Source: Candidatus Woesebacteria bacterium (GTDB taxonomy: Bacteria; Patescibacteriota; Microgenomatia; UBA1400; UBA1396). Taken from it: a stretch of DNA of 64,000 bases. The notes beneath the pieces were generated by a model. It was not told the DNA's origin. It was given only the letters and a program-made list of their open reading frames with translations, and searched no databases. The stretch covers positions 73,481 to 137,480 of the forward strand of contig JAJOJK010000003.1 in assembly GCA_021208605.1 (NCBI GenBank), written 5' to 3'. A program made the position numbers and the translations under genes. The stretch's first letter is position 1, and each line of letters starts with the position of its first letter. Below, in pieces: positions 3,392 to 57,239 of this stretch.

Positions 3392-5344
3392 ATGGCGTTT
3401 TCTTTTGTGCATCAGTCTTGGCAGTCAGCAGAACTTCGAGACAGACAATTGTTGCCGTCCCGCGAATCGCGCCGGCAGAATTCTGCCACAACTTCGCTCT
3501 CCATCCACGGCGGCATCAAGCATTGGCTGCGCGAAATGGTTCAGCAGCGCCAGGCTCGCCAGAGAAACACCGCCGAACAAACAACTCATTCCTCCCAATC
3601 CCAAAACACAGAATTAGCGAGTAACTTTCGTCTTATCGACGTCCTCACTTCTCTCAGCCAACGTGTACTTGAGAATCCAAAAATACTAGCCAAAGACTCG
3701 CCGGAGCGCTTCCAGCTGGAGGCCATGATGCGCGAGCAAATCCAGGCGTTTGTGGCTGAGCAGCTCGGTCTGCCGTATCACTCCTACGCCAACGAAGTCG
3801 ACTTGGGCAAATGGGTGAGTGACAACACGCTCGAAACCTTCCACCCCAAATACGCCGACACCGAAACGCGCGGTGACCTCCTCAACATGGCGCGTAAAGC
3901 GGCCACGGTCAACACGGGTGCCGAAGGTGACCGCTATCGCCGCGAACAAACACAACTCGAGGTGCTGTACCACGAAAAACTCACGGCCGAACTCACCAAC
4001 TGGCAAAACGAATCCACCTGGACACCCACCACGGCCGGAAATCTGCTTTCCGAAAATGTCCGCACGGAATATGGACTCACCAATCAAGAAGAAATCATTT
4101 ATGTCGGCAAAAAATACGCCTTGGCTATGCCCGAAAACTCGCAAGTATACCCAGAAGGCAAAGCGTACACGAACCTGCACCAACTGGTCTACATCCCTAG
4201 CCAAAACCGCGTTCTCTTGCTGATTGAACAGTGGTTCGACGAACACACCTACAATGACCAAGCCTTCATCTTAAATTCTTGGGAAGAAGACGCCATTCCT
4301 GACAGCGTCATGCTAACCGAAGATATTTTGATGTCGACCTTGGTTACGCTCCCCTCTGAAGTGCAAACAAGTCCTGCTTTTGAAGTCTTCGCAAATATGG
4401 CTCGCCAGCTCGACGCCAACCAGCAAGACACACAGTTCCGCCTCAACCAGCAAGCTCGCTTGGGTCTCCTTCATGCCAACAAAACCTCCATGCACCAGGC
4501 CGCCACTTTTTTAACACAGGTGCTTATCACCGAGTATTTAGTATGTCTGGAGTATCCGGAAGCCCTTTCTGATCTCTCGGCCCGACTCTGGGGCGCCTAC
4601 GAAATGATGGCGCATCCATTTTTAAGCGGTCACCACTTTATCTACGAGGCCACCTTGAAAAGTTACATGGACGGCTACCTCGGTCAATGGATTCACGCTA
4701 CCGCGCACCTACACTCACCCCAACTTAGCAACAGCCAGCTTGCCAACAGAGAACGTCGCCAAACCATCCACCGGCGCATTGAACAGCAGCTGCACCGTCG
4801 TTCCGCCCAAGAACAGCACCACCTCACCTCCCAACAAAAAGAACAGCGTAACTCTGCCCTGCAGCTTTTGGCCAACAATGGCTACACCAACATTTTGCAG
4901 CGCGTGGCGTCGGAAGCATGGTGCGCCACGGGTAACGTGGGCGGACTCACCCAAGTCTCACAAACTCTTAATTCGAGTTTGGGTCAATCGGTTATGAACG
5001 GACATTTCGTTAATATGAACGAACTCAGCCAGCTAATAGGACAGGATCGCGCAGAAAAATGGCAGATGGGCGTTTGCGAAAATCCCAACTGTCCCCGTGG
5101 TACTGTCACCCAGCTTGTCGGCGAGTGCGGATTTTGTATTCACTGCGAACTCCTCTCCCAAAGCGGACAAGAACTCACCAAACGCGGCGAACATGCTGAC
5201 TCTGATCTCGCGCGCCTCAACCAATTCGCCAAACAGCCGTTTCTCAACCCAGATGATGTTTCCAACTACTACCGCCGTCATTTAAAAATCGGCGTGGATA
5301 TACTGCCCACCTATCTTTTAGCCGGCGAGCAGGTTTTACGCTAA
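3392..5344 (+). CDS. Large hypothetical protein (~650 aa) with a C-terminal CxxC...CxxC zinc-ribbon-like motif
   Basis: ORF 3323..5344. The ATG at 3323 sits inside a TATAAT-like element, so the internal ATG at 3392 (MAFSFVHQSW) is preferred. C-terminus contains ...CENPNCPRG...CGFCIHC. Confidence 0.45.
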   Translation: MAFSFVHQSWQSAELRDRQLLPSRESRRQNSATTSLSIHGGIKHWLREMVQQRQARQRNTAEQTTHSSQSQNTELASNFRLIDVLTSLSQRVLENPKILAKDSPERFQLEAMMREQIQAFVAEQLGLPYHSYANEVDLGKWVSDNTLETFHPKYADTETRGDLLNMARKAATVNTGAEGDRYRREQTQLEVLYHEKLTAELTNWQNESTWTPTTAGNLLSENVRTEYGLTNQEEIIYVGKKYALAMPENSQVYPEGKAYTNLHQLVYIPSQNRVLLLIEQWFDEHTYNDQAFILNSWEEDAIPDSVMLTEDILMSTLVTLPSEVQTSPAFEVFANMARQLDANQQDTQFRLNQQARLGLLHANKTSMHQAATFLTQVLITEYLVCLEYPEALSDLSARLWGAYEMMAHPFLSGHHFIYEATLKSYMDGYLGQWIHATAHLHSPQLSNSQLANRERRQTIHRRIEQQLHRRSAQEQHHLTSQQKEQRNSALQLLANNGYTNILQRVASEAWCATGNVGGLTQVSQTLNSSLGQSVMNGHFVNMNELSQLIGQDRAEKWQMGVCENPNCPRGTVTQLVGECGFCIHCELLSQSGQELTKRGEHADSDLARLNQFAKQPFLNPDDVSNYYRRHLKIGVDILPTYLLAGEQVLR

Positions 5345-9177: not shown

Positions 9178-9705
9178 ATGATCAATGCAGTTGAGCAGGA
9201 ACACGCATTAGAGCGGTTAGAGCACATTTTAAAAATGCAAGCCGTGGCAGTATTTTATCTAGTAGGTAATTCAAAAAAAAATGATGAATATAAGCAAGAA
9301 ATACTTGCGAAAATGCAAGAAGTTATCACCGCAACTGCTGAACTCGATCAAGAAACAGAGCCACCACTTGTTCTCCAATTTTCCTGTATAGCAAAAGACC
9401 GGTTTCATATATCGGTAACTGATCCAAATGGAAACGTTCTCTCAAAAGAATTTTCTCCGAATGAGTTATCTGCTTTGTTGTATGCTGGCGTAGGTGGGCA
9501 TTTAGTATTTGATGAAGAGAAATTAAAAGAAACAGTTTCTGAAGAAGATCGCCTTAAGGCTCTCGATCTTCTCCTAGGCATGGTGTATAACTCCAACGAA
9601 ATGGATCCACAAAAAGGTCAGCGAGTTTTTGTGTTGCAGCAAGAACCTGAAGTTTCGAATGACTTGGTTGGCCGAGTTATCACTATGAGCGTAGAGCTCC
9701 GTTAA
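9178..9705 (+). CDS. Hypothetical protein, 175 aa
   Basis: Clean ORF in the same strand run between dnaN and rpmH; AT-richer than its flanks. Confidence 0.45.
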   Translation: MINAVEQEHALERLEHILKMQAVAVFYLVGNSKKNDEYKQEILAKMQEVITATAELDQETEPPLVLQFSCIAKDRFHISVTDPNGNVLSKEFSPNELSALLYAGVGGHLVFDEEKLKETVSEEDRLKALDLLLGMVYNSNEMDPQKGQRVFVLQQEPEVSNDLVGRVITMSVELR

Positions 9706-17832: not shown

Positions 17833-17870
17833 TTTCTCAAGAAGGAGAATCCTAGGATTCTCCTTCTTGA
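17833..17870. promoter_or_regulatory. 38-bp perfect palindrome in the valS / exonuclease divergent intergenic region
   Basis: ctcaagaaggagaatcc|taggattctccttcttgag centred on cctagg. A third GGAGAATCC half-site sits at ~17886-17894. Confidence 0.5.
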
Positions 17871-18010
17871 GGTAGTTGTGGAGCAGGAGAATCCGAAAAG
17901 ATCTATTCCCGCACCATCCTCGCACTATTCTCGTAGACTCTATCAAACTATATCATTTCTATTTTTGTTTGGATTGCCAAAGCTTCTCAAAACCGGCATA
18001 GTACAGAACT

Positions 18011-18598
18011 ATGCGACACGTATTCATGGATGTAGAAACTCAGAAAAGTTTTGAAGAAGTTGGCGGGTATTTTCCCGAGAAGCTGGGCGTCAGTTTCGTG
18101 GGCATTTGTATCCGCGACGGCTACAACGGACCTGGCGAGTTCAAAGGCTTTTTCGAACAAGACTTACCCAAACTCTGGCCAATTTTCGAAACGGCTGATG
18201 TAGTGATTGGCTTTAATAATCTCGGATTCGACAACGAAACCTTGAGGCCGTACTACAGCGGAGATCCAAATCAGTGGAATAATCTCGATCTCATGGCCCG
18301 CTTCAAGGAAGCTACCGGACACCGCATCGGGTTAGATGCCATTGCCAAAGAGTCAGTTGGAGCGGGGAAGACCGGCAACGGACTCGATGCCATCAAGTAC
18401 TACCGCGAAAATCGCTTGCGCGAGTTGGCCAAGTACTGCTTGCAAGATGTGGCTATCACGCGCGATGTGTACGATTTTGGTCGGACACACAACAAAGTGG
18501 TCTACACCAACAAGTGGAATCGCCGTATTGAGTCGGCGGTGGATTTTACCTATGTGCCGACGGCTGCGAGCGGGGTGCAGATGGCACTTCTCGGATGA
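18011..18598 (+). CDS. DEDD-type 3'-5' exonuclease domain protein
   Basis: Exo I FMDVETQ, Exo II GFNNLGFDNE, Exo III YCLQDVAITRDVY (DEDDy pattern). Confidence 0.55.
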   Translation: MRHVFMDVETQKSFEEVGGYFPEKLGVSFVGICIRDGYNGPGEFKGFFEQDLPKLWPIFETADVVIGFNNLGFDNETLRPYYSGDPNQWNNLDLMARFKEATGHRIGLDAIAKESVGAGKTGNGLDAIKYYRENRLRELAKYCLQDVAITRDVYDFGRTHNKVVYTNKWNRRIESAVDFTYVPTAASGVQMALLG

Positions 18599-18601
18599 TT
18601 A

Positions 18602-18628
18602 GAGAGGGACCGACCCTTAGGCCTATAA
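18602..18628. repeat. REP-like repeat copy (gagagggaccgacccttaggcctataa)
   Basis: Near-identical to 39794..39820 and to the reverse complement of 40292..40315 and 40447..40471. Confidence 0.6.
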
Positions 18629-18662: not shown

Positions 18663-19622
18663 ATGCCAACAATTTTTGATGCTTCCGCAGAAGAGCAGAA
18701 GAAAAAGCAGAAAGCTGTCGAACAACAGTTGGCTGATATTCAACGCGAAAGAAAACAGAATTTAAAGAAGAACCAGGCTAAAAAGACAAAAAAAACAGCT
18801 AACTCTGTTCCCAAAAAAACATTGAAATTGACGAACTCAACAGGTATTCCTCAAATTGAACACGCCTCAATACCGACTGCAGAAACAGATCAAAAATCAG
18901 AAATTTCATTCTCCAAAACTGAGAAAAACGTGCCAAAGGACCGTCCTTCCATGACCTCCAAGCCCACCGCGAACCCCACGCCACAAACAACCCCCACAAC
19001 CCCGTCAGCAAAGCGCCGACCAGAAGAGTACAGCTCCGTTTTGAGAGGTGAGCGCCCAAGTAATGGAATTTTCGCCGCCTTCATGCCCCAGCCCCACGGC
19101 GTCGGGTTTGAGTCTCAGCATGAGCACGAGGAGATTCTGCTGGTGTTGCGTCAACATCCAGTCGTTAACGTGGTTTGGGTTACCATCACAATTATTCTGA
19201 TGCTGGCACCATTTTTGTTGTTCCCAATGATTCCGCTGCAGGTTATTTTGCCCGGGGTGTATATGTTTTTCTTGATGGTGGCCTGGTATTTATTCGTCAC
19301 GGCGTATGTGATTGAAAGTTTTTTGGGTTGGTACTTCAACATTTACATCATCACCGACGAAAGAATTATCGACATCGATTTCTATTCCTTAATCTACAAG
19401 TCAGTTTCTGAAGCCAAAATCGAGAAAATTGAAGACGTCACCTCAACAACCGCTGGTTTCTTTGGGGCATTTTTCAATTACGGCAATATTGCCATTCAGA
19501 CCGCCGCCGAGAAGCGCGAGTTTGAGTTCGCCCGGGTGCCGCAACCAGCCAAGATAACTAAGTTTTTGAACGAACTCATGATTGAAGAAGAACGGGAGAA
19601 AATTGAAGGGAGGGTGATGTAA
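18663..19622 (+). CDS. Membrane protein with a bacterial PH (bPH_2 / YdbT-like) domain
   Basis: K/Q-rich N-terminus, two TM helices, then YFNIYIITDERIIDIDF...EFEFARVPQPAKITKFL, typical of membrane-flanked PH domains. Confidence 0.5.
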   Translation: MPTIFDASAEEQKKKQKAVEQQLADIQRERKQNLKKNQAKKTKKTANSVPKKTLKLTNSTGIPQIEHASIPTAETDQKSEISFSKTEKNVPKDRPSMTSKPTANPTPQTTPTTPSAKRRPEEYSSVLRGERPSNGIFAAFMPQPHGVGFESQHEHEEILLVLRQHPVVNVVWVTITIILMLAPFLLFPMIPLQVILPGVYMFFLMVAWYLFVTAYVIESFLGWYFNIYIITDERIIDIDFYSLIYKSVSEAKIEKIEDVTSTTAGFFGAFFNYGNIAIQTAAEKREFEFARVPQPAKITKFLNELMIEEEREKIEGRVM

Positions 19623-22221: not shown

Positions 22222-24648
22222 CTACTCCCACCCAAAATACCCACTCGTGGCTTGGAATAATCGTTCAGCCGGGACAATATACCTTTCTTCAACAGGTTTT
22301 TGTTCCGGCTGTCCTTCTGCGTTGATGACCTCGATAGTTTGGCGTTGGCAGTCTAAGCAGTAGTCGCGGGTGAAGGGGTCGGTGAGGAGCACGTGCTCTT
22401 CGAATTTTAATTTATCGGTCGGGTCATTAGGACCGGGTGGTAAGCCGGTTTGTTCGGCAATCCAGGTACCGTTGACCACATTTTCCACGTCTTGTGGCTC
22501 GGTGCCTTCCCAGAATTTTTCGGTGACGGTGCTGCATTGTTTGTCGGCTGGCACGGCTGGATTGGGAAGCGCGCCAGAACGTTGGCAGATAGCCACTTCG
22601 GTAATGCTTTCTGGTTCCGGCTGCCATTCTTCTTCTGGGCTCGGGTCTTCTTGCACCAAGTACGACATGATGTCATTCCAGATTGGGGCGGCGCCGGTGA
22701 TACCAGAGACCAAGTACGGGTTCATGGCGGAGTTGTCGGTATTTCCGACCCATGTGGCGACTAAGTAGTCAGCACTGAAGCCCACGGTCCAGTTGTCGCG
22801 TAGGTCGTTGGTGGTGCCGGTTTTAGCGGCGACCTTCTGTCCACGGATTTGCAGGTTGGAGGACGCGCCAAAGGCCGGAATACGGGCTTGGTTGTCGGAA
22901 ATGATATCACTGACCAGGTAGGCCGGTTCGCGGTCTAAAACGCGGTAAATGTCATCGCGGTCGTCGGATACTTTGGCTTCGAGCTCGCGACGTTCTTCAG
23001 CCGGCCCGGTGGGCGCCAAGAACTGTTGTGACTCAAACGCTTGTAAACGCTCGTCGAGGTTGACTTCGCGGAGAACTTCTCCGGTGTAGGTTTCAACTTT
23101 GAGAATAGAAATAAGTGGAACCTTGACTCCCTGGTTCGCTAAGACACCATAGGCTGTTGCCAACTCAGTCATCTTCACTTCGCCGGCGCCGAGAGGCAGA
23201 GACAGGCCGTAATTTTTTTCATCGGTGCTGAGTGAAAGGAGTCCCATGGCGCGAGTGCGCTCGATAATTTCGCTGGTGCCGTTGACGGCGCCTGTTTTTA
23301 CCGCCGGAACGTTATACGAGTTGGCTAACGCAGCCCGGGGCAGAACTGGACCGCGGTAACTATTGTCGTAGTTCCTGGGACAGTATTCCTCTTGGCCAAC
23401 CACCTGGAAACAGGTGGGAATGTCCAAAAGCATGGTGCCCATGTTGAAACGTCTGGTTTGGAGTGCGGTGGCGAGGTTCAGCGGCTTCATGGATGAGCCT
23501 GGCTGGCGTGGGCGCACAGTCATGTTGATTTGGCCTTCGTCGGTGGCGTCGAAGTAATCGTGTGAGCCGACCATGGCTAATATTTCGCCAGTATGCGGTT
23601 TGGTGACCAGCGCCGCGCCATTGCCCACTCTGTAGCGATCAAGATCATCGATTTCAGCGGAAAGGGAAGCTTGCGCTACTTGCTGCAAGCCAAGATCTAA
23701 AGTTGTAGTGACGCGAAGTCCGCCGCGCTCGACGGTGGCTTGGCCGTATTCTTCAATGAGTAAATCGCGCACGTAAAAGACGAAATGCGGGGCCTGAATA
23801 TCGAAGCGCTTTTCGGCAAAGGCGAGTTCTTGTTCTTCGGCCGAGTCCGCCTCTTCCTGAGTAATGTAGCCTTCTTCGACCATACGACGGAGTACTTCTC
23901 GCTGTCGATCAAATCCCAACTGCGGTGTATTGCCAAACGGCGAGTAACGTGTCGGTGACTGGGGTAATCCGGCCAAATAGCTGGCTTCAGCTAAAGTTAA
24001 ATCTTTCGCAGATTTATCGAAATAGGTATTAGCGGCAGCCTCGATTCCCCACGCGGTTCCGCCATAGGGCACATGATTCAAGTACATTTCGAGAATGTCT
24101 TTTTTGGAGTAGAGCACTTCTGTAGCCAAGGTTAAGACGGCCTCTTTGATTTTGCGTTCGAGGGTTTTTTCTCTGGTGAGAAGTGATACTTTGACGAGCT
24201 GCTGAGTAATGGTTGATCCACCTTCTGGGGAGCCGCCTTGGGTCAAATTTTTGTAAAACGCGCGGGCAATGCCAAAGAAGTCGAGTCCAAAGTGACGATA
24301 GAAGTTTTGGTCTTCCACGGCGATGGTCGCTTGCGGCACATACTCAGGCAGCTCATCGAGTTGGATGGGTGTTCGGTTTTCGTCGGAAAAAATCTCGTAG
24401 AGGAGAGTTCCGTTGCGGTCAAGAATCTGCGTGCTGACTGATAAGTTTTCGGCAGAGCGGAGTTTGGTGGGAGAGGGCAGATCTTTAATGAAGAGTACGA
24501 GCAACACAAAGATGCTCACGAGCGCTAAAAAAGTGACGACCAATAACAAACGCTGCAGCCAACCCCATTTTTTCCAGAGTTGTAGTGATTTTTTTTGGAG
24601 AAGGCGAAGTCGTTCCACTTGCATATTATAGCTTACCGATTGCCGCAT
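22222..24648 (-). CDS. ponA: Class A penicillin-binding protein (transglycosylase + transpeptidase), PBP1A-like
   Basis: GT51 motifs (ATIAVEDQNFYRHFG, GGSTITQQLVK); transpeptidase SxxK (GSSMKPL), SxN and KTG (KTGTTND). N-terminal TM anchor. Confidence 0.85.
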   Translation of the reverse strand: MRQSVSYNMQVERLRLLQKKSLQLWKKWGWLQRLLLVVTFLALVSIFVLLVLFIKDLPSPTKLRSAENLSVSTQILDRNGTLLYEIFSDENRTPIQLDELPEYVPQATIAVEDQNFYRHFGLDFFGIARAFYKNLTQGGSPEGGSTITQQLVKVSLLTREKTLERKIKEAVLTLATEVLYSKKDILEMYLNHVPYGGTAWGIEAAANTYFDKSAKDLTLAEASYLAGLPQSPTRYSPFGNTPQLGFDRQREVLRRMVEEGYITQEEADSAEEQELAFAEKRFDIQAPHFVFYVRDLLIEEYGQATVERGGLRVTTTLDLGLQQVAQASLSAEIDDLDRYRVGNGAALVTKPHTGEILAMVGSHDYFDATDEGQINMTVRPRQPGSSMKPLNLATALQTRRFNMGTMLLDIPTCFQVVGQEEYCPRNYDNSYRGPVLPRAALANSYNVPAVKTGAVNGTSEIIERTRAMGLLSLSTDEKNYGLSLPLGAGEVKMTELATAYGVLANQGVKVPLISILKVETYTGEVLREVNLDERLQAFESQQFLAPTGPAEERRELEAKVSDDRDDIYRVLDREPAYLVSDIISDNQARIPAFGASSNLQIRGQKVAAKTGTTNDLRDNWTVGFSADYLVATWVGNTDNSAMNPYLVSGITGAAPIWNDIMSYLVQEDPSPEEEWQPEPESITEVAICQRSGALPNPAVPADKQCSTVTEKFWEGTEPQDVENVVNGTWIAEQTGLPPGPNDPTDKLKFEEHVLLTDPFTRDYCLDCQRQTIEVINAEGQPEQKPVEERYIVPAERLFQATSGYFGWE

Positions 24649-24653
24649 CTTTA

Positions 24654-24870
24654 GGGACGGTCCTTTACTTGTTCACCAGAGGGGAGGAATGTCCTACATC
24701 GAGAAAGGATGGTCCCTCACCTCTTCGCCAGATGGGAAGAATGCTCCACATCGAGAAGGGACGGTCCTTCACCTCTTCACCAGAGGAGAGAAATACTCCA
24801 CCTCAAGAAGGGTTGGTCCCTCTTACTCCCTCTCCCCCTCCACATCAAGAAGGGTTGGACCCTGTCGCGC
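24654..24870. repeat. About four degenerate tandem copies of a ~52-bp repeat
   Basis: Units start at 24654, 24707, 24759 and 24811 (partial), ~80% identical, all beginning gg(a/t)(c/t)ggtcc. They lie in the 5' leader region of the PBP gene. Confidence 0.6.
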
Positions 24871-30598: not shown

Positions 30599-33340
30599 GT
30601 GCGATACAATACCTCTATTGTGCGCACACTGATCCGCTGGTTAGGTACCGGATTCCTTTTTAGTTTTCTTTTGGTCGTTTTAGGCGGAAGTTCTGTTGTC
30701 GTGCAGGCGCAGTCCGCGGACACATCATCCAGTGGCGATCCCCTCGTTGGTCCCCACGAAGCCGGCAACTTGCCGAATATTCAAGATAAAGTTTCTGGTC
30801 TGCCAATGGTGGTCATTTTGCGCGCTGATAACTCGGTCGAAACATTTATCAGCACAGTTTCACGCTACTCGAGTGCCAATCCGCTTGTTATTCGTATCAC
30901 GGGTGTGCAAGACGGTATGTCCACCGCTGCCGCCGCCGATGTCGCCAATAAAATCAACCAACTGCAAGGGATTACGCCGCAAGGCACGATTGTCGTGTTT
31001 GGTAATGAGCTTAACAACTTAGAGCACGAATGGAAAAATCCGGGTATTGATGTCATTGAAGCGGGCCGACGGTATGCGCCGCTGTTCGCCGCTTTCCAAA
31101 GCGTTTTAAGCAATCATTTCCGCGCAGCCGCCTCACCGCTAGATACGTATAACGGTGATTACGCCTGGGATGGTTTTCTGGCTGGAGCGCTATCGGCGTA
31201 TGAACAAGCTGACGCCACAGTGGCTAATGCCTATGAGATTCCGCGTATTCGACCTGCCGATCAGACGGTCAGTGACATTCAGATGGTGATTGACAAAGTA
31301 CAAGCAGCGACCGGCAAGCCAGTCGATTTCCTCACCGAATACGGCTACGATCCCGAAGCAACTCTCGAAGAAAACGTCAAATTTCTACGCGAAAATAGTC
31401 CGCCCAACGGCCTCCAAGCCGCTACTCTGGTCCCCAACAAATGTGGTGATCGCGAGTTTAGTACTAGCGGCTTAACAGAAGATCCGTGGCTCTATTATGT
31501 GAACGGCGATGTCTACACCAAAGACGGCGTCAAAGTCATTGTTGGTGAAGGCAATAATTGTGATGGCTCAGAAGAATTCACTTCGCTTGATCCGGTTTTA
31601 ATTTATCCCCGCACCGATCGCGAAACCACCTCCCAAGGTGAGTTTGACCAATCGACCGAAGACGCCCTGTGGCGCAAATACCTGGCCAACTCGCAAGTGT
31701 ACTGTGGCCCGCGTCAACTCTATTTGTCGACTGAAGCAAACAACATCCTTATGAACAACTGTCAGGTATCGGGCAATCTCGGTCCGCAAGCTAACGGCGG
31801 CGATGCAGCCGATGATCGCATTTGTGGCCCATTTGAGTTCCCAGTCGTCGATACCGAATCCAAAACCACCGCGCAAAGCATGACCTTTCCACTCTTCCGT
31901 GATGACGGCGGCAGTATCAGCATCGAAGCCGATTTATCGCGCGTAGATCCGGAAGACACCTTCGTGGAAGCCGCTAAGCGCAACTCCAAACCAGAATACG
32001 CACCACAGTTTTACCTCACCACACCAGAGACACAGTGTGTCAACGCGGTGCGCTACGCCGAGTATGTTTCTAATGCCTGTGCCACCTTTTTTGAAGCCCA
32101 ACCAGGCAGCGAAGGCGACGATGCCCGCTGCGGTGGCGATATTCCGGTCACCTTGCCGGATGGCACCCAAACCACGGTCTTAGAATTAAAAGATTTGGTT
32201 CTGGGTGGAGAGCACGTCTGTAACAACTACAACCCCAGCGACAGCGAAGCCTTATTAACGCAAGCGGTGCAAAGTATCCAGCCGCACACGCCGCGCATCT
32301 TTAAGATGGGTTTCTTGGTGCAGTATACCTACTCGCATGATGAAAACGCGCCGTTGGTTGATCAATTCAGTACTGGTCTCGATATTGTGCAGAAAATCAT
32401 TAACTGGTTTGCCGGACAAGACGAGTCGAGCGTGGCGGCACTCGACGCCGAAGCCGGAGTCAAGTTAGACATTATTCCGGTCTGGTACCACGTTGGTATG
32501 GCCGCTTCGTACTTTGACTCTGCGCAGGCCAGTCGATCTTTCAATATTGATCCCGATGACACTTCAAATGTCGTCAGTAATGAAATTGGCATGTTTTCTG
32601 GAGCCCTCTGGCAAAACTACCTACCCGCCATGCAGCCACAACACCAAGAATTTTTAGCCAACACCTTTACCAAGTACGTAATCGGCAACAACGACATCAT
32701 GAAGTTCATGGCGAATCACTTCCAGGGTATTTCTAGTTTGCCACTGCAGAACAAAATCTTCTTTAGTAATGAAGACGTGTCCCAGATTACTGGCAAAGAC
32801 AGTGGTTGGGAACAAAATGCCTACGACAAGACTTCATACGAAAACGCGCGTCACCAAATTCCGTTACCATGTACCGATGGACAAGCCTGTTTTTGTTTTG
32901 GCGACGGCGAAAACGAACGCTGTGTGAACCAATCACGAGCAGAATTGGCGCAGTATTTCCCTGGTTCATTTGAACCCTCCGAAGAATACTTAAATGCTTT
33001 GCGCCGCCAAATTGTGTACCGCATCAATGCCGGAGTGCAATCAACATTCCGCTCTCCACAAGAGATTATTGACCCTGACACCGGCGAGCGCTGGCAAGAT
33101 GGCTCTTTGTCGATGCGCAACTTCCCCGGCGGCGATCTGGAAGCCTGCGGCTTAGACCAAGAAAATCTGCGCCAGGGCTACCAAGAAGAAGTGGCTGAGA
33201 TCGGTTCCAAAGCCGTCCAAACAGAAAAGCCGGCCGACGCTCCCAGCGACGCTCCGTGGTACTCCTTTGTCACCGAATTGCGCTCAAAAGTCATGGGGTG
33301 GGGTGGTCGTGACGACATGACCGGTCGGCCGCGATCTTGA
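30599..33340 (+). CDS. Large secreted protein (913 aa) with an N-terminal clan GH-A-like glycoside hydrolase domain (tentative)
   Basis: Signal peptide. VVFGNELNN (acid/base-like NE) and, ~105 aa later, FLTEYGY (GH5-type nucleophile (I/V)TE(Y/F)G). Long Cys-containing C-terminal region. Confidence 0.4.
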   Translation: MRYNTSIVRTLIRWLGTGFLFSFLLVVLGGSSVVVQAQSADTSSSGDPLVGPHEAGNLPNIQDKVSGLPMVVILRADNSVETFISTVSRYSSANPLVIRITGVQDGMSTAAAADVANKINQLQGITPQGTIVVFGNELNNLEHEWKNPGIDVIEAGRRYAPLFAAFQSVLSNHFRAAASPLDTYNGDYAWDGFLAGALSAYEQADATVANAYEIPRIRPADQTVSDIQMVIDKVQAATGKPVDFLTEYGYDPEATLEENVKFLRENSPPNGLQAATLVPNKCGDREFSTSGLTEDPWLYYVNGDVYTKDGVKVIVGEGNNCDGSEEFTSLDPVLIYPRTDRETTSQGEFDQSTEDALWRKYLANSQVYCGPRQLYLSTEANNILMNNCQVSGNLGPQANGGDAADDRICGPFEFPVVDTESKTTAQSMTFPLFRDDGGSISIEADLSRVDPEDTFVEAAKRNSKPEYAPQFYLTTPETQCVNAVRYAEYVSNACATFFEAQPGSEGDDARCGGDIPVTLPDGTQTTVLELKDLVLGGEHVCNNYNPSDSEALLTQAVQSIQPHTPRIFKMGFLVQYTYSHDENAPLVDQFSTGLDIVQKIINWFAGQDESSVAALDAEAGVKLDIIPVWYHVGMAASYFDSAQASRSFNIDPDDTSNVVSNEIGMFSGALWQNYLPAMQPQHQEFLANTFTKYVIGNNDIMKFMANHFQGISSLPLQNKIFFSNEDVSQITGKDSGWEQNAYDKTSYENARHQIPLPCTDGQACFCFGDGENERCVNQSRAELAQYFPGSFEPSEEYLNALRRQIVYRINAGVQSTFRSPQEIIDPDTGERWQDGSLSMRNFPGGDLEACGLDQENLRQGYQEEVAEIGSKAVQTEKPADAPSDAPWYSFVTELRSKVMGWGGRDDMTGRPRS

Positions 33341-36962: not shown

Positions 36963-36990
36963 TTGACACCTCTCTAACATTTGGTAATAT
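36963..36990 (+). promoter_or_regulatory. Sigma70-like promoter upstream of the 16S gene (TTGACA-16-TAATAT)
   Basis: ttgaca at 36963-36968 and taatat at 36985-36990, ~380 nt before the 16S 5' end. A second candidate (ttgcat..16..cagaat) lies ~40 nt upstream of the 16S. Confidence 0.4.
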
Positions 36991-37372
36991 ACATATCTAC
37001 GAGCCAAGGTCTCAGTGACCGACACCACACTTTATCGGTGTCGCGAGAGAAACCAGTCTCGGTTCCAATTGAGTTCTTTTTGAACAACCGATGTTGGAAG
37101 GCACTGCCAAAGCTGGAAACAGCAACGTAGATGCCGATTTCATATTGTTCTTGAACAAGTAAAGACTCGTCAATTCAAATGATTTATTTCATATGAAAAA
37201 ACAAAACGTGAATATATCTTCCAGATATATTCATAGCTTTCAATAACAACGAAATCGAGACATAGCATCTCGATTTACAATTTTTGATAACAAACAGTAT
37301 ACGGACTGGCAGGATGCATTGGATTTTGCATTCTGCACAATCTGTGTCAGAATCATTTTCCGTTATTTTTTT

Positions 37373-38861
<1,489 letters not shown>

Positions 38862-39023
38862 CTAAGGAGTGTCGGTATGAGTCTCACGCCTCATTCCGGA
38901 TTACGAGCAATCGTAACAAAACTCTGAAGTCCTGTGGACATATGTGCCCAGGCCTTCCTGCCAGTCCGCATGTTGTTTGTGTCAAAAACCCAAATGAGTC
39001 TTTACAAGAACAGATGACAAAAG

Positions 39024-39047
39024 AACCGCTATTGAGCGGTTTTTTTG
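39024..39047. terminator. Rho-independent terminator ~160 nt downstream of the 16S (could also terminate the convergent HD gene)
   Basis: accgct / attg / agcggt followed by ttttttt. Confidence 0.6.
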
Positions 39048-39083
39048 TGCGTGTTTTGATTATGTGCTTTTGATATAAAAAGT

Positions 39084-39611
39084 TTATTGTTGGAAAACAG
39101 AAATCAAAAAAGTAACGTGTTCACTCAGTGGAACGCCAATAAGTTTGGCGCCACTTTCGATATCTTCCCGAGGAACAGCGGCCGCGAACGCTTTGTTTTT
39201 TAATTTCTTTTTTACGGAAGACCACTTCATGCCCTCAAACCTACCTGGGTGAACCTTTGCTACCGCATCCATGAACCCAGAAATTTCATCACAGGCGAAC
39301 AGATACTTTTCGATATTGGTTTCTGGTTGCTTACCGGTTCGTGCAGGTGCATGGGCACGAATAGCATCAAGAATTTCGTCTGAGATCCCGTGTGCTGGCA
39401 ATATTTCGTCACAGGCTTTGTTGGGATGTTCGTCAGGATATTTTTCCCAGTCAAGATCATGGAGAAGGCCAGCAATGTACCAGTCTTCGCTGTTTTCACC
39501 GAGTTTGGTGGCATACGCTTCCATGGCTTGCGCAACCATCTCGCAATGTCGGCGGAGAGCTGGATTATCAATATATTCAGTGAGGAGTTGCTGAGCTTCG
39601 GATTTGGTCAT
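39084..39611 (-). CDS. HD-domain phosphohydrolase
   Basis: HD signature (AGLLHDLDWEKY) with upstream His; 175 aa. Located inside the 16S-23S interval on the opposite strand. Confidence 0.6.
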   Translation of the reverse strand: MTKSEAQQLLTEYIDNPALRRHCEMVAQAMEAYATKLGENSEDWYIAGLLHDLDWEKYPDEHPNKACDEILPAHGISDEILDAIRAHAPARTGKQPETNIEKYLFACDEISGFMDAVAKVHPGRFEGMKWSSVKKKLKNKAFAAAVPREDIESGAKLIGVPLSEHVTFLISVFQQ

Positions 39612-39704
39612 AGGGGCAGTATAGCAAGTGTTGTTTGTAGGGAGCGGTGCGGTTTCTGCTTACGATTTTGGCAATCTATGATACAATCAGTATCTCTTAC
39701 TCTT

Positions 39705-39778
39705 GAGGGTATAGCTCAGTTGGTTAGAGCGCAGTCCTGATAAGACTGAGGTCCCTGGTTCGAGTCCAGGTACCCTCA
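39705..39778 (+). tRNA. tRNA-Ile (anticodon GAT)
   Basis: Cloverleaf gagggta/taccctc acceptor; anticodon loop ctGATaa; T-loop ttcgagt; no encoded CCA. Confidence 0.85.
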
Positions 39779-39793
39779 CTATTTTGTGTTTTT

Positions 39794-39820
39794 GAGAGGG
39801 ACCGACCCTCAGGCCTATAA
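39794..39820. repeat. REP-like repeat copy (gagagggaccgaccctcaggcctataa)
   Basis: Same family as 18602..18628. Abuts the transposase stop codon. Confidence 0.6.
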
Positions 39821-40252
39821 TTTATAACCTCTCCCAACATGTTTCCAGTCTGAAAAGCCAGCATTTATCGGGTTATCAAGTATATATTGTCTCGTTTTGG
39901 CAACTTTCGCTGGCGGTACATACGCAGCTTTGTAAATATCTTGAAAAAGCCTCCCAACTCGTCCGTATTTTTTATTGATATACATGACATATCTGGTCAT
40001 GGTTTTTCGCATGAGGATTTCTATTGCTCTCGTAGTAACCTGGTATACCAGAAAGTGAAAATGGTTTGGCATGAGGCAGAAAGTATCTACAATTACTTCG
40101 CAGTACTCTTCTTGAAGTACCCTGCGCGTAATGGCTCGAAATACTTCATAATCTTGTTCCGAAAAGAATATTTCTTCTTTATTATTTCCACGGTTATATA
40201 TGTGAAAATAGCTGTTTGGTTGGTAATACTTTACCCGATTAATTGCTGGCAT
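39815..40252 (-). CDS. IS200/IS605-family Y1 (HUH) transposase, RAYT-like
   Basis: YFHIYNRGNNKEEIF, CLMPNHFHFLV (HuH motif), ...GRLFQDIYKAAYV (catalytic Tyr region), ILDNPINAGF. 145 aa. Flanked by REP-like repeats on both sides. Confidence 0.8.
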   Translation of the reverse strand: MPAINRVKYYQPNSYFHIYNRGNNKEEIFFSEQDYEVFRAITRRVLQEEYCEVIVDTFCLMPNHFHFLVYQVTTRAIEILMRKTMTRYVMYINKKYGRVGRLFQDIYKAAYVPPAKVAKTRQYILDNPINAGFSDWKHVGRGYKL

Positions 40253-40291
40253 GAAGCGATGGTAGCAAGAGAAGTGAACAAAAATATTACA

Positions 40292-40315
40292 GGCTTGAGG
40301 GTCGGTCCTTCGAGC
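40292..40315. repeat. REP-like repeat copy, inverted orientation
   Basis: Reverse complement gctcgaaggaccgaccctcaagcc matches the REP core ggaccgaccctcaggcc. Confidence 0.55.
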
Positions 40316-40327
40316 TCATAAAAAAAG

Positions 40328-40401
40328 TGGACCCAAGGGGATTCGAACCCCTGACCTCTTCATTGCAAATGAAGCGCTCTAGCCAGCTGAGCTATGGGCC
40401 C
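40328..40401 (-). tRNA. tRNA-Ala (anticodon UGC), on the strand opposite the rRNA genes
   Basis: Reverse complement gggcccatagctcagctggctagagcgcttcatttgcaatgaag...ccttgggtcca. Anticodon loop ttTGCaa; G3:U70 Ala identity pair present. Confidence 0.85.
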
Positions 40402-40446
40402 AAGAAGGGTATTATATCCTACTACTTGGATATTGGTAAGTAATGT

Positions 40447-40471
40447 TTATAGGCCTAAGGGTTGGTCCTTC
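40447..40471. repeat. REP-like repeat copy, inverted orientation (variant)
   Basis: Reverse complement ggaccaacccttaggcctataa matches the REP consensus with one substitution. Confidence 0.5.
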
Positions 40472-40485
40472 ATCCATCGGTCGAT

Positions 40486-42177
40486 CTACCGTCGCAGCAT
40501 AAAGTACACGCCCATCCCCATCAGGCCAAAACCGGTCAAAGCCAAAGCGACCGTATTTTCTATCGCTCCAGCTACTGGCAGCGTTTCTACCGGTGAGCTA
40601 GGAGTGGGGGTTGGATTGACGGCTACGTCACAGAGACAGTCAGTTTCGCCAGTACAGGCGCTGTTACGGCACATGCCGCCGTTACAGACAAGGCCAGAAG
40701 AACAGTCGGCGTTGGTGCTACAGGCGTTGTTACAGCTGGCCAATGGAGTAGGTTGTGGGGTTGGTTCAGGCGTGGCCGAAGGCGTTGGTGTGGCACTTGG
40801 TGTCGGTGTCGGACAGAGACAGTTCGCTTCTTCGGAACAGGAAGGATTGCGACACATGCCGTCGTCGGAACAGGTGAGACCGTCGCCGCAATCGGCATCG
40901 CTCACACAGGCTTCGCTACAAGATGCCGGTGGAGTTGGCGTCGGTGTCGGAGTAGCCTGTGGGGTGGGTTTGGGAGTTGGCTTTGGAGTGGGGTTCGATT
41001 TTTGTGTAGTGGTCGTCGTGGATGGTGCACTGCCACAGCTATTATTTATAATGGAAAATTCTCCACAGAGTTGGCCATCACGGGAACCGCCAACACAGAC
41101 TTGGTCTATTTGCCCACATCCGCCGGCATAGGAAACCGCATCAGCGCGAGAAGACTTGCGAGAGCCATTTTGCTCACAGACGAGTTGTCCATTACTAGTA
41201 GAAGAGGTGTGCAAGCTGTCGCATTTAAAGGCATACCAGCCGGAGCAAGAGCCGCCAGGACATTGTTGGGAACCAGTTTGTCCGGAGTCTTCACACTTAC
41301 GATTTCCTGAGGTGCCCTGACAGACAGCGGTGCCACAGCAGTTGTCGGACAGGCCGCGCTCGGAACCACAGGCTTGTCCAGCGGAGACACAAGCAGTTTT
41401 TCCTGACGATCCGGTGTTGGATCCCGATGACTGCTCAACCCAAGAACCATTTTTACAAACGTACTTTACGCCGTCGCGGGTGCCGGTTTGGCCGTCGTTA
41501 CATTCATTATTTGATTGACCGCCGTCACAAGTGTTGCCGCCGTCGATCCATTGACCAGAACACGTACACTCACAGTTCGCAACACCGTAGTCACCTTTGC
41601 CACAGAGTTTTCGGCCGCCAACGGAACCGCCCCGGACAGAGCTTTTTCGATCGCGACAAGTACTAGAACAATTGCTGGCGTTATAGTTACAACTTCCACC
41701 AGATGAACCACTGCCACCGCTAGAACCAGAACTACCACTGCCACCAGAGCCGCCGCTTTTACAGCCTGCACAACCAGAATCACAGCCTGCAATCCAAGCT
41801 TCCGGATCCGGTTGAGCCGAAGCACCAGCACGACAGTCATTCATACAGGCTTCATAGCTGGCTCGAGGACAGCTACTCGCTTGTTGGCGTAAGTCTTGTT
41901 GTTGCTGCGAAAGATACACTGCCGCACCAATACCAATGAGGACTACCACTGAAACGAAAACAGCGGCAATGATGCCAAAGCGTTTTTTCATGAATTTTTG
42001 CAAACCAGAGAGTGATCTTCCAGAGGATCCAGAAGAACCAGAAGAAGAGGGTCGTGATGAGTTGTTATTTTGCGGTTTTTCTTTTTTAGGCGCCGCCTGT
42101 TTTCCACCTCTTTGATTGGCGTTTTGAATAGTATTAATCACGTCTTGTGATTGTGGTGGAATGTAGGCAGGACTCAT
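40486..42177 (-). CDS. Cys-rich, Pro/Thr-linker surface protein with N-terminal signal anchor and C-terminal LPVAG sorting-signal-like motif
   Basis: N-terminal TM (IIAAVFVSVVVLIGIGAAVYL). Duplicated ~40-aa cysteine module SC(S/N)xACxxxADCxxGLxCxxGMCRNxxCxxExxCLC, separated by PTPTP linkers; Gly/Ser runs. C-terminus ...VETLPVAGAIE + hydrophobic helix + RR (sortase-substrate architecture). Confidence 0.65.
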   Translation of the reverse strand: MSPAYIPPQSQDVINTIQNANQRGGKQAAPKKEKPQNNNSSRPSSSGSSGSSGRSLSGLQKFMKKRFGIIAAVFVSVVVLIGIGAAVYLSQQQQDLRQQASSCPRASYEACMNDCRAGASAQPDPEAWIAGCDSGCAGCKSGGSGGSGSSGSSGGSGSSGGSCNYNASNCSSTCRDRKSSVRGGSVGGRKLCGKGDYGVANCECTCSGQWIDGGNTCDGGQSNNECNDGQTGTRDGVKYVCKNGSWVEQSSGSNTGSSGKTACVSAGQACGSERGLSDNCCGTAVCQGTSGNRKCEDSGQTGSQQCPGGSCSGWYAFKCDSLHTSSTSNGQLVCEQNGSRKSSRADAVSYAGGCGQIDQVCVGGSRDGQLCGEFSIINNSCGSAPSTTTTTQKSNPTPKPTPKPTPQATPTPTPTPPASCSEACVSDADCGDGLTCSDDGMCRNPSCSEEANCLCPTPTPSATPTPSATPEPTPQPTPLASCNNACSTNADCSSGLVCNGGMCRNSACTGETDCLCDVAVNPTPTPSSPVETLPVAGAIENTVALALTGFGLMGMGVYFMLRR

Positions 42178-42373
42178 TACCGTATAATGGCAAATTTTTT
42201 GTTAAGAAACAAGACGCTGCTCGTGCGAACACACCGATACACATATAACGATACATATATAAGGAGTACGCACTCAGAACGAAGTCAAAGCGACATATTA
42301 AGGGTTTCTATTGGACTTTTTTACTATAAATACGTGTTTTTCAAAAACCAGTGCTCCAGAGAAGTTTCTTCTC

Positions 42374-42407
42374 AAAACTCATACTTGCACCCCGTGGCAT
42401 GGATGGT
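42374..42407 (+). promoter_or_regulatory. Sigma70-like promoter candidate upstream of the 23S (TTGCAC-16-TATACT)
   Basis: ttgcac cccgtggcatggatgg tatact, ~350 nt before the 23S 5' end. Confidence 0.35.
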
Positions 42408-42758
42408 ATACTACTAATCCTCTGCACATGACACTTGTTTCGGTCAGGCAGATGAGGGACAACCTTCACCGGTCTCTCTCATTTACCAAAGAAACACTTT
42501 TACTTGCTACATGCTCAGGTTCCTTGTGAACGAGCCCCTGTACACGTCATAACGCATTAAGCCTATGGCGCTTACGTGTATTGTGCGGGGAACAGAGTGG
42601 TGACACTTTGTCGCTCGTGAACAAGTAGAGATTTAAACAAGAATTTAAACTTAAAGTAAAGTTTTCAAAAACGGTCGCTGCGATTGTTTTTTTGGTTTAC
42701 CAAAACAGCAATCAATATATATCAGCAGTCGTTTCATGAGAATTGATCAAATATATCG

Positions 42759-45655
<2,897 letters not shown>

Positions 45656-45891
45656 TGTTGATCAGTCCGTGTGAAACGGACGCTTACATGCAAAAATCTG
45701 TTGATATTTCATAGTGATCGTAGCTGAGAGTAATTTACTCTAAGACCTCTTGTCAGAATTGATTCGTCAATTCTTATCTCTACTTGTTCAGGGGTGATAA
45801 TTCTGTCATCCTGAACATGTACATACGAAAAAGTTTCGCTGGCTATTACTGATGGGCCAGCCCAATTTTTTCGACAGCGAAGACGCTTTTA

Positions 45892-46008
45892 TTCCGGTCT
45901 CTGGAGCGCAGTGGAACCAACTCTTTCCATTCCGAACAGAGTCTTGAAACGCTGCAGCGGTGAAGGTACTGCTTGGGCAACTGAGTGGTAGAATAGCTCG
46001 AGGCCGGA
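45892..46008 (+). rRNA. rrf: 5S ribosomal RNA
   Basis: Helix I tccggtctc/gaggccgga; conserved loop ccattccgaacagagtcttgaaacgc...ggtagaatagc. Confidence 0.75.
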
Positions 46009-46188
46009 ATAAAGGCGTTTTTTGTGCTTTTTGAACATTTTTCTCGATTGTTGAGCTTTGCTCACTCATGAGAGAAAAATGTTCAAAAAACACCGATGAA
46101 TAAAGTGACTGAGTGAGCAAAGCTCAACAGCCACAAAAAATTCTTCTGGTACCGATCTCATCTGTGTAAATAGGACACAGAATTGCTT

Positions 46189-56772: not shown

Positions 56773-56845
56773 GGGCCCATGGCGCAGCTGGTAGCGCGTC
56801 TGTATGGCATACAGAAGGTCAGGGGTTCGAGTCCCCTTGGGTCCA
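56773..56845 (+). tRNA. tRNA-Ala (anticodon GGC)
   Basis: gggccca.../tgggtcc acceptor with G3:U70; anticodon loop atGGCat; T-loop ttcgagt. Confidence 0.8.
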
Positions 56846-56854
56846 CAAAAAAAA

Positions 56855-57126: not shown

Positions 57127-57197
57127 GGGCCTATAGGTAAGGGGTATACCGCAGCATTCGCATTGCTGAGTCCCGAGTTCGATTCTCGGTAGGTCCA
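57127..57197 (+). tRNA. tRNA-Ala (anticodon CGC)
   Basis: gggccta.../taggtcc acceptor with G3:U70; anticodon stem cagca/tgctg with loop ttCGCat; T-arm ccgag ttcgatt ctcgg; short D-loop. TGn-extended -10 (tggtagaat) upstream. Confidence 0.7.
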
Positions 57198-57239
57198 CTT
57201 TTTTCAAAAAGAGTAACCGAAAAGTGGGAAGATTGAAAT

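Follow-up and report, generated by a model that had tools for sequence, protein, structure and literature searches.

A fragmented rRNA locus of a Candidatus Woesebacteria bacterium that keeps the old operon order and is probably transcribed as separate units

Layout of the rRNA locus

We analysed a 64,000-nt stretch of DNA from a Candidatus Woesebacteria bacterium (assembly GCA_021208605.1, contig JAJOJK010000003.1, positions 73,481 to 137,480 of the forward strand; hereafter the window, numbered from its first base) with regard to its ribosomal RNA (rRNA) genes. The window carries a single rRNA locus, in which the 16S gene and the 23S-5S pair are separated by 3898 nt (38862-42759 by Rfam placement), with protein-coding genes between them. 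Our reading, to which we give a probability of about 75%, is that the locus would comprise four separate transcription units (16S; tRNA-Ile; tRNA-Ala; 23S-5S) that stand in the old order of an operon broken long ago. The genes of the locus are as follows.

37367-38861, plus strand: 16S rRNA gene (Rfam RF00177, 1422.6 bits, full length)
39084-39611, minus strand: HD/HDIG-domain hydrolase gene, convergent on 16S (Pfam HD 7e-9; NCBIfam HDIG)
39705-39779, plus strand: tRNA-Ile (GAT) gene (ARAGORN, Rfam)
39815-40252, minus strand: gene for a short Y1 (HUH) transposase of 145 aa, resembling REP-associated tyrosine transposases (RAYT-like; REP, repetitive extragenic palindromic; Pfam Y1_Tnp 1.3e-10)
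40327-40401, minus strand, opposite to the rRNA genes: tRNA-Ala (TGC) gene (ARAGORN, Rfam)
40486-42177, minus strand: gene for a Cys-rich surface protein of 563 aa, anchored at its N-terminus and with an LPVAG sorting signal at the C-terminus
42760-45651, plus strand: 23S rRNA gene (Rfam RF02541, 2468.5 bits, full length)
45893-46009, plus strand: 5S rRNA gene (Rfam RF00001)

The three minus-strand open reading frames (ORFs) of the interval (39084-39611, 39815-40252 and 40486-42177) occupy most of the space left by the tRNA genes, and all are antisense to the rRNA direction. A sensitive Rfam scan of the interval matched only the two tRNAs, and its GC content (44-52%) is similar to that of the remainder of the window. 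A first-pass annotation, made from the sequence alone, had described a spacer of about 3.9 kb with coding genes between 16S and 23S-5S, including a minus-strand HD gene, tRNA-Ile and an inverted tRNA-Ala; the Rfam, Pfam, ARAGORN and ORF map bears out each of these, and Rfam now fixes the rRNA ends that it had left to be settled (16S end 38861; 23S start 42760).

The edge-to-edge distance exceeds the 1500 bp beyond which rRNA genes count as unlinked. With three protein genes and tRNA-Ala on the minus strand and the rRNA genes on the plus strand, the locus has the layout termed "unlinked by distance" in the Candidate Phyla Radiation (CPR, Patescibacteria). The window belongs to this group: identical proteins are named "Candidatus Woesebacteria bacterium" at NCBI, and its S1 and transposase have homologues from Patescibacteria. 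A canonical rrn operon would be a poor match, given an internal transcribed spacer (ITS) of 3.9 kb, a conserved predicted intrinsic terminator after 16S and a tRNA-Ala on the opposite strand.

Misassembly is typical at rRNA regions, and the first-pass annotation had named a chimeric assembly as a possible source of the split. The same gene order (16S, HD, tRNA-Ile, transposase, tRNA-Ala, 563-aa gene, 23S, 5S) was found on a 395-kb contig of GCA_021209405.1, which traverses the join, and on a 35-kb contig of GCA_021208925.1, both of which differ from the window solely by homopolymer-type indels. Logan short-read contigs from three runs showed 100% identity over window 38382-40309 (16S 3' end, HD, tRNA-Ile and transposase), and both flanks are joined likewise in three of the related loci described below (L013, L015 and L099). 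A fusion of a 16S contig with a 23S contig inside the spacer is thus extremely improbable, although a contig of a same-species metagenome-assembled genome (MAG; JAJOJZ010000014.1, GCA_021208155.1) begins inside the transposase gene, at window ~40225, and one Logan contig stops at window 40309, within the second of the repeat copies listed below. The two contig breaks may mean that the population is structurally heterogeneous or has an invertible segment.

Conservation of the split layout in relatives

Relatives were gathered by following homologues of the HD and S1 proteins into their contigs, where rRNA genes were located by blastn and tRNA genes by ARAGORN. This yielded seven related rRNA loci with 16S identities to the window of 86-97%.

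L006: 16S 97.3% identical; 16S-23S distance >10.8 kb, no 23S in the locus
L008: 16S 86.5% identical; 16S-23S distance >12.9 kb, no 23S in the locus
L010: 16S 86.2% identical; 16S-23S distance >11.2 kb, no 23S in the locus
L013: 16S 86.2% identical; 16S-23S distance 4170 nt
L015: 16S 87.2% identical; 16S-23S distance 4754 nt
L048: 16S 87.5% identical; 16S-23S distance >7.0 kb, no 23S in the locus
L099: 16S 86.6% identical; 16S-23S distance 4887 nt

The short-spacer state, for which the first-pass annotation proposed to look in related genomes, was found in none of the seven; the interval measures 4170-4887 nt, or no 23S lies within 7-13 kb. A search for the 23S gene of L006 through its S1 gene did not locate it, the sole contig with that S1 beginning 123 nt upstream of S1. 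In all seven relatives, tRNA-Ile and then tRNA-Ala follow downstream of 16S, both co-oriented with it. The flanks are shared as well, with NrdR, RNR, a ~1300-aa protein and MnmA on one side, and S1, a RadA-like gene, Rho, LysM/M23, Obg, tRNA-Ala(GGC) and tRNA-Ala(CGC) on the other. The layout was inherited and did not arise recently, since it is common to relatives with 16S identities as low as about 86%. On this comparison, the split rRNA locus is an inherited feature of the clade whose gaps tolerate gene turnover, and the old gene order persists over roughly family-level divergence.

The suggestion that the spacer served as a landing site for mobile or accessory DNA holds in part. Relatives do differ in the genes that they carry in the sub-intervals: a UDP-galactopyranose mutase lies in L006, a HIT gene in L013, L015 and L099 and, in L099 too, an acyltransferase, besides various unknown genes. 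A recent landing, on the other hand, is not supported, the split itself being ancient. If a compact canonical operon had lately been invaded by a mobile island of transposase plus cargo, this would account for a Y1 transposase with flanking repeats in the interval, for the variable gene content and for the absence of the window's repeat motif from the relatives' loci. It is nevertheless very improbable: no relative is in the compact state, six of the seven lineages have the HD gene 3' of 16S, the congeneric L006 carries the surface-protein gene in synteny, RAYT-like homologues occur in the rRNA loci of three lineages, the GC content of the interval matches the rest of the window, and the segment between the two inverted repeats is the transposase only (516 nt).

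The 16S unit

The following elements were predicted around the 16S gene.

36963-36990, plus strand: candidate 16S promoter TTGACA-16-TGgTAATAT with an extended -10 (consensus scan, 10/12 with TG)
37146-37168, plus strand: boxA-like motif TGTTCTTGAACAA of the 16S leader and 5' strand of a distal processing helix, pairing with 38996-39013
37302-37314, plus strand: 5' strand of the proximal 16S processing helix, CGGACTGGCAGGA, perfect 13-bp complement of 38956-38968
38956-38968, plus strand: 3' strand of the proximal helix, TCCTGCCAGTCCG, conserved in 8/8 aligned genomes
38996-39013, plus strand: 3' strand of the distal helix, complementary to 37146-37168 apart from a bulge of 5-6 nt, and separated from the terminator by 3 nt
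39017-39048, plus strand (bidirectional shape): predicted intrinsic terminator ending the 16S unit, 14-bp stem and U7

The promoter motif is intact in the congeneric L006 at -418, with two substitutions in the spacer. Leader-trailer pairing was assessed with RNAduplex on whole leaders against whole trailers, followed by an exact search for perfect local complements. The whole-length duplexes were over-long and were discarded; only perfect local complements were kept because the RNAduplex controls scored almost as high. The proximal helix covaries in L010, where AAACTGACAGGATGG pairs with CCATCCTGTCAGTTT, and about 117 nt of the 16S trailer are conserved. The leader motif TGTTCTTGAACAA agrees at 11/13 positions with the E. 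coli boxA, which we take to be TGCTCTTTAACAA; the same bases build the processing helix, and the boxA is a predicted element. A related motif, GCTCGTGAACAAGTA, occurs in the 16S leaders of L010 and L048.

The rho-independent terminator proposed at about 160 nt after 16S was recovered as a GC-rich hairpin followed by a U-tract at 39017-39048, with a predicted folding energy of -22 kcal/mol on the plus strand (z = -6.0). A GC hairpin with a T7 run occupies the equivalent position in six of the seven relatives (L006, L008, L010, L013, L015 and L099); the stem sequences differ, and 5 of 12 stem pairs carry compensatory changes.

The bidirectional shape of this hairpin, with an A-run upstream and a T-run downstream, tells against our reading in one respect: it lies 36 nt past the HD stop codon and could mainly serve the convergent HD gene. 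Were it essentially the HD terminator, 16S and the co-oriented tRNA-Ile would be co-transcribed and only 23S-5S would be separate. We consider this unlikely. The plus strand has both the better fold (-22 against -15.1 kcal/mol on the minus strand) and the better U-tract (U7 against CUUUUGU). In L010, the same element precedes a gene that is co-directional with 16S, so that there it can only serve 16S. Moreover, tRNA-Ile has a conserved candidate promoter of its own, with an extended -10, in eight genomes, as described next.

The tRNA and 23S-5S units

Candidate promoters and a second processing helix were found at the remaining genes.

39660-39687, plus strand: candidate tRNA-Ile promoter TTACGA-16-TGaTACAAT
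40411-40439, minus strand: candidate tRNA-Ala promoter TTACCA-17-TATAAT (consensus scan 10/12), 10 nt before the tRNA
42385-42412, plus strand: candidate 23S-5S promoter TTGCAC-16-TGgTATACT, 348 nt before 23S, conserved in L096
42612-42632, plus strand: boxA-like motif CGCTCGTGAACAAGTAGAGA(T) in the 23S leader, ~140 nt before 23S, which also gives the 5' strand of the 23S processing helix
45776-45789, plus strand: 3' strand of the 23S processing helix, ATCTCTACTTGTTC, in the 23S-5S spacer

Over the 57 nt that precede tRNA-Ile, the window and L006 are 95% identical, despite a different upstream gene. An extended -10 element precedes tRNA-Ile in 8/8 genomes, in five of them as TGaTA(C/A)AAT about 25 nt upstream, and (G)ATATAATACCC lies 10-15 nt upstream of tRNA-Ala in the window, L010, L013, L015 and L099.

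For 23S, the first-pass annotation had placed a sigma70-like promoter about 350 nt upstream, and the candidate at 42385-42412 agrees with it. The consensus scan missed this promoter because its -35 matches at only 3/6 positions. Its conservation could be followed in L096, a single 1.8-kb metagenome contig that a search with the invariant 20-mer of the 23S leader recovered: upstream of 23S, both L096 and the window have TTGCAC-16-TGnTATACT, while L013, L015 and L099 share CCCTTGC-N17-TGnTATATT at a comparable distance. Within each of the two groups, the hexamers are conserved and the spacers vary. The leader motif CGCTCGTGAACAAGTAGAGA is invariant in the window, L013, L015, L099 and L096. It resembles the presumed E. 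coli boxA TGCTCTTTAACAA at 10/13 positions, again as a predicted element whose bases also form the processing helix, and it recurs in 16S leaders. Its core, GAACAAGTAGAGAT, pairs perfectly with 45776-45789 of the 23S-5S spacer and therefore forms the 23S processing helix. The processing helices are thus self-contained for each rRNA, and that of 16S covaries.

Four candidate transcription units

Taken together, these elements suggest how an ancestral operon (16S, tRNA-Ile, tRNA-Ala, 23S, 5S) may have been broken into four independently transcribed units. The first would run from the promoter at 36963-36990 through leader, 16S and trailer to the terminator at 39017-39048, with leader and trailer pairing as a processing helix. 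The second and third would be tRNA-Ile and tRNA-Ala, each preceded at 10-25 nt by a promoter of its own (extended -10 or -10). The fourth would start at 42385-42412, with a leader that pairs with the 23S-5S spacer, and continue through 23S and 5S. The gaps are filled by ordinary antisense protein genes, namely the HD hydrolase, the RAYT-like transposase and the sortase-type surface protein. That the rRNA genes are transcribed separately, as first proposed, gains comparative support from the terminator in 6/7 relatives, from three antisense genes plus an inverted tRNA, and from conserved candidate promoters at tRNA-Ile, tRNA-Ala and 23S; the activity of these elements we infer from sequence.

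This last point counts against the reading, as do four others. Promoter-like and terminator-like matches are no more frequent in the region than in shuffled sequence. The -35 of the 23S promoter (TTGCAC) is poor and falls below the generic scan threshold. A terminator-like hairpin with T7 lies at 42667-42691, inside the proposed 23S leader and about 70 nt before the mature 23S 5' end; it is kept in L096, is weak (-11.5 kcal/mol, z = -2) and is presumably a leader structure, not a terminator. Finally, the boxA-like motifs suggest rRNA antitermination complexes, by which termination might in principle be lowered.

An alternative view is that the locus is still one operon, in which transcription from the 16S promoter would pass the hairpin by boxA/Nus antitermination, cross the 3.9 kb and be processed to 23S-5S, the internal promoters being auxiliary. 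The ancestral order of the three rRNA genes and tRNA-Ile on one strand, the boxA-like motifs in both leaders and a spacer of just 3.9 kb are in keeping with it. Yet a strong, clade-conserved predicted intrinsic terminator directly follows the 16S processing helix, and rrn antitermination acts chiefly on Rho-dependent terminators. Read-through would also cross the HD, transposase, surface-protein and tRNA-Ala genes in the antisense direction. Furthermore, an independent 23S promoter is required in relatives with a 23S >10 kb away, and a promoter motif of this kind is conserved. We therefore think a surviving single operon improbable and favour four separate units.

A RAYT-like transposase and REP-like repeats around tRNA-Ala

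The transposase matches Pfam Y1_Tnp above the cut-off and is IS200-like. Its motifs HFH (64-66) and YILDNP (123-128) are intact and invariant in the alignment, as befits a Y1 HUH enzyme. The best NCBIfam match was REP_Tyr_transpos (NF047646), at 35.1 bits against a cut-off of 80, and a PDB sequence search with the transposase gave no match. A 25-nt repeat, GAGGGACCGACCCTCAGGCCTATAA, occurs in four copies in the window, at 39796 (+), 40287 (-), 40447 (-) and 18604 (+), where zero would be expected by chance. Three of them lie around the transposase and tRNA-Ala.

39796-39820, plus strand: REP-like repeat copy 1, overlapping the transposase stop codon
40287-40311, minus strand: REP-like repeat copy 2, inverted relative to copy 1
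40447-40471, minus strand: REP-like repeat copy 3, inverted relative to copy 1

Copies 1 and 2 flank the transposase gene in inverted orientation and are 88% complementary. The palindrome within the repeat is only 4-5 bp, with weak DNA hairpin folding; since this folding is not significant, we call the elements REP-like and not REPs. In Proteobacteria, REP/RAYT systems consist of a Y1 HUH transposase with HUH and YxxxNP motifs, whose gene is flanked by inverted short repeats. The window resembles them in a gene that is single in the available sequence, in inverted flanking repeats, and in related repeats and palindromes scattered between genes. It differs in the length of the protein (145 aa), its score below the NCBIfam cut-off, the short palindrome and the low number of canonical copies (4 in 64 kb). 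The description of a RAYT/IS200-like transposase between REP-like repeats is thus upheld as to the Y1 gene and its inverted repeats, and is less secure as to the RAYT and REP assignments, given 35 of the 80 bits required and a palindrome of just 4-5 bp. A literature search for REP/RAYT in CPR returned nothing relevant among the papers available.

The 64 kb hold, in all, four canonical repeat copies, a related 52-nt tandem array and one transposase gene. The fourth copy, GAGGGACCGACCCTTAGGCCTATAA, is near perfect and lies at 18604-18628, intergenic between the ORFs 18011-18598 and 18663-19622. The tandem array (24653-24822) directly follows an 808-aa ORF (22222-24648). Its 52-nt unit is present in 3.3 copies, and the core of the unit, AGGGA(C/T)GGTCC(C/T)T, resembles the REP-like palindrome. 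An exact-pattern search for the window's repeat motif in the relatives' loci found no match; looser resemblance was seen in palindrome arms in L015 and in a repeat pair in the 16S trailer of L099. A different palindrome, CTCAAGAAGGAGAATCC with TAGGATTCTCCTTCTTGAG, lies at window 17833-17874 and is homologous to L006 10562-10593, between the 16S terminator and HD; it represents a second REPIN-like family common to the genus.

The inversion of tRNA-Ala is confined to the window's species. The segment between copies 1 (+) and 3 (-) consists precisely of the transposase gene, repeat copy 2 and tRNA-Ala with its promoter. On comparison of the loci, the tRNA-Ala flip, the position of the RAYT-like gene and its three flanking REP-like repeats are all species-specific. 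Recombination between the inverted copies at 39796 and 40447 would have flipped tRNA-Ala and carried its own promoter along, and such a repeat-mediated inversion is the most likely origin of the present orientation. Copies 1 and 2 could flip the transposase alone. Weighing against the inversion step, the copies are too short and too alike to reveal recombinant ends.

The window's transposase belongs to a short RAYT-like subfamily of 143-157 aa; most CPR homologues have ~208 aa, are ~40% identical and are labelled RayT by JGI. Other members of the short subfamily, 41-47% identical to that of the window, were found in the following places.

L102 4781-5230 (L102/L100): between tRNA-Ala and 23S
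L015 10655-11089: between 16S and HD
L048 10351-10782: ~640 nt upstream of 16S

A large palindrome with 42-nt arms lies directly upstream of these relatives' genes. In L015, a 231-aa gene called at this place is the antisense of the RAYT-like ORF. Every short-subfamily member with readable context lies in an rRNA locus, at differing positions, in what is a small sample; the association is not purely one of ascertainment, because L015 and L048 were collected through HD and not through the transposase. With homologues in the rRNA loci of three other lineages, the RAYT-like gene looks like an old resident and not a recent arrival. Whether the short subfamily and its cognate palindromic repeats are a long-term resident of the fragmented rRNA locus throughout the clade, and an agent of its rearrangement, is a tentative idea that we hold to be more doubtful than probable. 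If true, the inverted tRNA-Ala and the contig breaks near repeat copy 2 would reflect repeat-mediated and possibly ongoing inversion.

The HD and surface-protein genes

The HD protein scored 36.4 bits with Pfam HD (cut-off 22) and 28.0 with HDIG (cut-off 27.6), which places it among HD-domain proteins, and it has more than 1300 homologues. A PDB sequence search with it gave no match. Its gene lies 3' of 16S in L006, L008, L010, L013, L015 and L048, with an extra gene between 16S and HD in L008, L010 and L015; as far as these loci show, HD is an old neighbour of 16S. A functional coupling between HD and 16S was considered and rejected: among 80 HD loci of other genomes (mostly Balneolaceae plus several CPR), 16S lies within 10 kb only in the close clade, and L099 has no HD at that position. 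Proteins of Balneolaceae, Gracilimonas and Rhodohalobacter (loci L018-L095) share 57-65% identity with the HD protein, as much as many CPR homologues do. This similarity is unusually high for such distant phyla and may reflect strong constraint or lateral transfer.

The 563-aa protein had no Pfam match. It contains 46 Cys (8.2%) and an N-terminal membrane helix at residues 66-90, and its C-terminus has the features of a predicted sortase signal (LPVAG at 533, a hydrophobic stretch at 543-561 and a terminal RR), in agreement with the Cys-rich, LPVAG-anchored surface protein of the first-pass annotation. The L006 orthologue (528 aa, 61% identity, 6e-79) carries LPTAG and has the same position and orientation.

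Comparison with known rRNA arrangements

Split rRNA loci are known from reduced genomes such as those of Buchnera, Wolbachia, Rickettsia, Borrelia, Helicobacter and Thermus, in which 16S stands apart from 23S-5S and each has its own promoter. In these classical cases, the parts are usually tens to hundreds of kilobases apart and the spacer tRNAs are relocated or lost. The window is like them in its predicted separate transcription of 16S and 23S-5S, and unlike them in that its parts are still adjacent and collinear.

Unlinked rRNA genes, defined by an ITS >1500 bp, are a phylogenetically conserved trait (Brewer et al., bioRxiv 10.1101/705046; ISME J 2020). Patescibacteria/CPR are listed among the clades with exclusively unlinked rRNA genes, and most unlinked cases are >6 kb apart, with a mean of ~410 kb (Brewer et al., bioRxiv 10.1101/705046). 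The window falls in this class by its ITS; it departs from it in a distance of just 3.9 kb, in the ancestral order and in keeping both spacer tRNAs. In the part of Lui et al. (2021, PMC8172020) considered here, 27/34 closed CPR genomes are unlinked, and the class of Fig 3D (same strand, separation >2000 bp, opposite-strand genes between), "unlinked by distance", matches the arrangement of the window. The same part classifies arrangements only, with no terminators, promoters, processing helices or conservation of intervening genes, and contains no description of a transposase-associated tRNA inversion (PMC8172020). The spacer is therefore not abnormal in the sense first supposed, as unlinked rRNA genes are the majority state in CPR according to Brewer et al. 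(10.1101/705046) and that part of Lui et al. (PMC8172020). The split locus is real, was correctly described and is ordinary for its phylum, its type having already been published for CPR.

What the window still adds is a dissection of four units at motif level, together with the association of a RAYT-like gene with rDNA. The clade is one more whose rRNA genes escape amplification or binning as one operon, which matters for annotation and for long-amplicon 16S-ITS-23S surveys. The locus may offer a view, at the level of motifs, of an operon dismantled without dispersal, in which each piece would have its own promoter, 16S its own terminator and each rRNA its own processing helix. This makes the clade a handy natural case for 16S:23S stoichiometry without co-transcription. 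As to what reshuffles these loci, the recurrent RAYT-like gene offers a small new lead. The general published picture of CPR is left unchanged by all of this.

Further observations

A pair of tRNA-Ala genes (GGC/CGC) lies downstream of Obg in the window (56773-56846 and 57127-57198), a position kept in L099 (18461-18640), so that three tRNA-Ala isoacceptor genes stand within 17 kb of genome. In L005, a second MAG of the species, the tRNA-Ala at 9212-9285 has the anticodon GGC instead of TGC and a lower score; several indels at the window-equivalent positions 40360-40371 suggest assembly error over biology. Single-base homopolymer indels between the species' assemblies occur at 33328 and also at 29764, 40331, 44996, 46102 and others. 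At 33328, a single 1333-aa gene of GCA_021209405.1 is read as two ORFs (913 aa and 425 aa) in the window, and the difference is probably a long-read consensus error in one assembly.

Insertions were seen in rRNA genes of other loci. The 16S region of L048 (7985-9716) has an insertion of ~900 nt that lies about 45 nt short of the 16S 3' end and, further upstream, a second one of ~280 nt in length, and the 23S region of L102 (405-4157) has one encoding LAGLIDADG; the rRNA genes of the window have no such insertions. Five loci (L016, L017, L037, L076 and L088) are titled "uncultured Pseudomonadales bacterium", a deposited taxonomy that appears wrong. L016 and L017 have a CPR-like rRNA locus and synteny, with a 16S 97% identical to that of the window in L016 and a partial 16S at 86.5% in L017; for L037, L076 and L088 the doubt is based on the HD match only. 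In L010, an AdoCbl-II riboswitch match above the gathering score lies at 4832-4921, a few kilobases from the rRNA locus.

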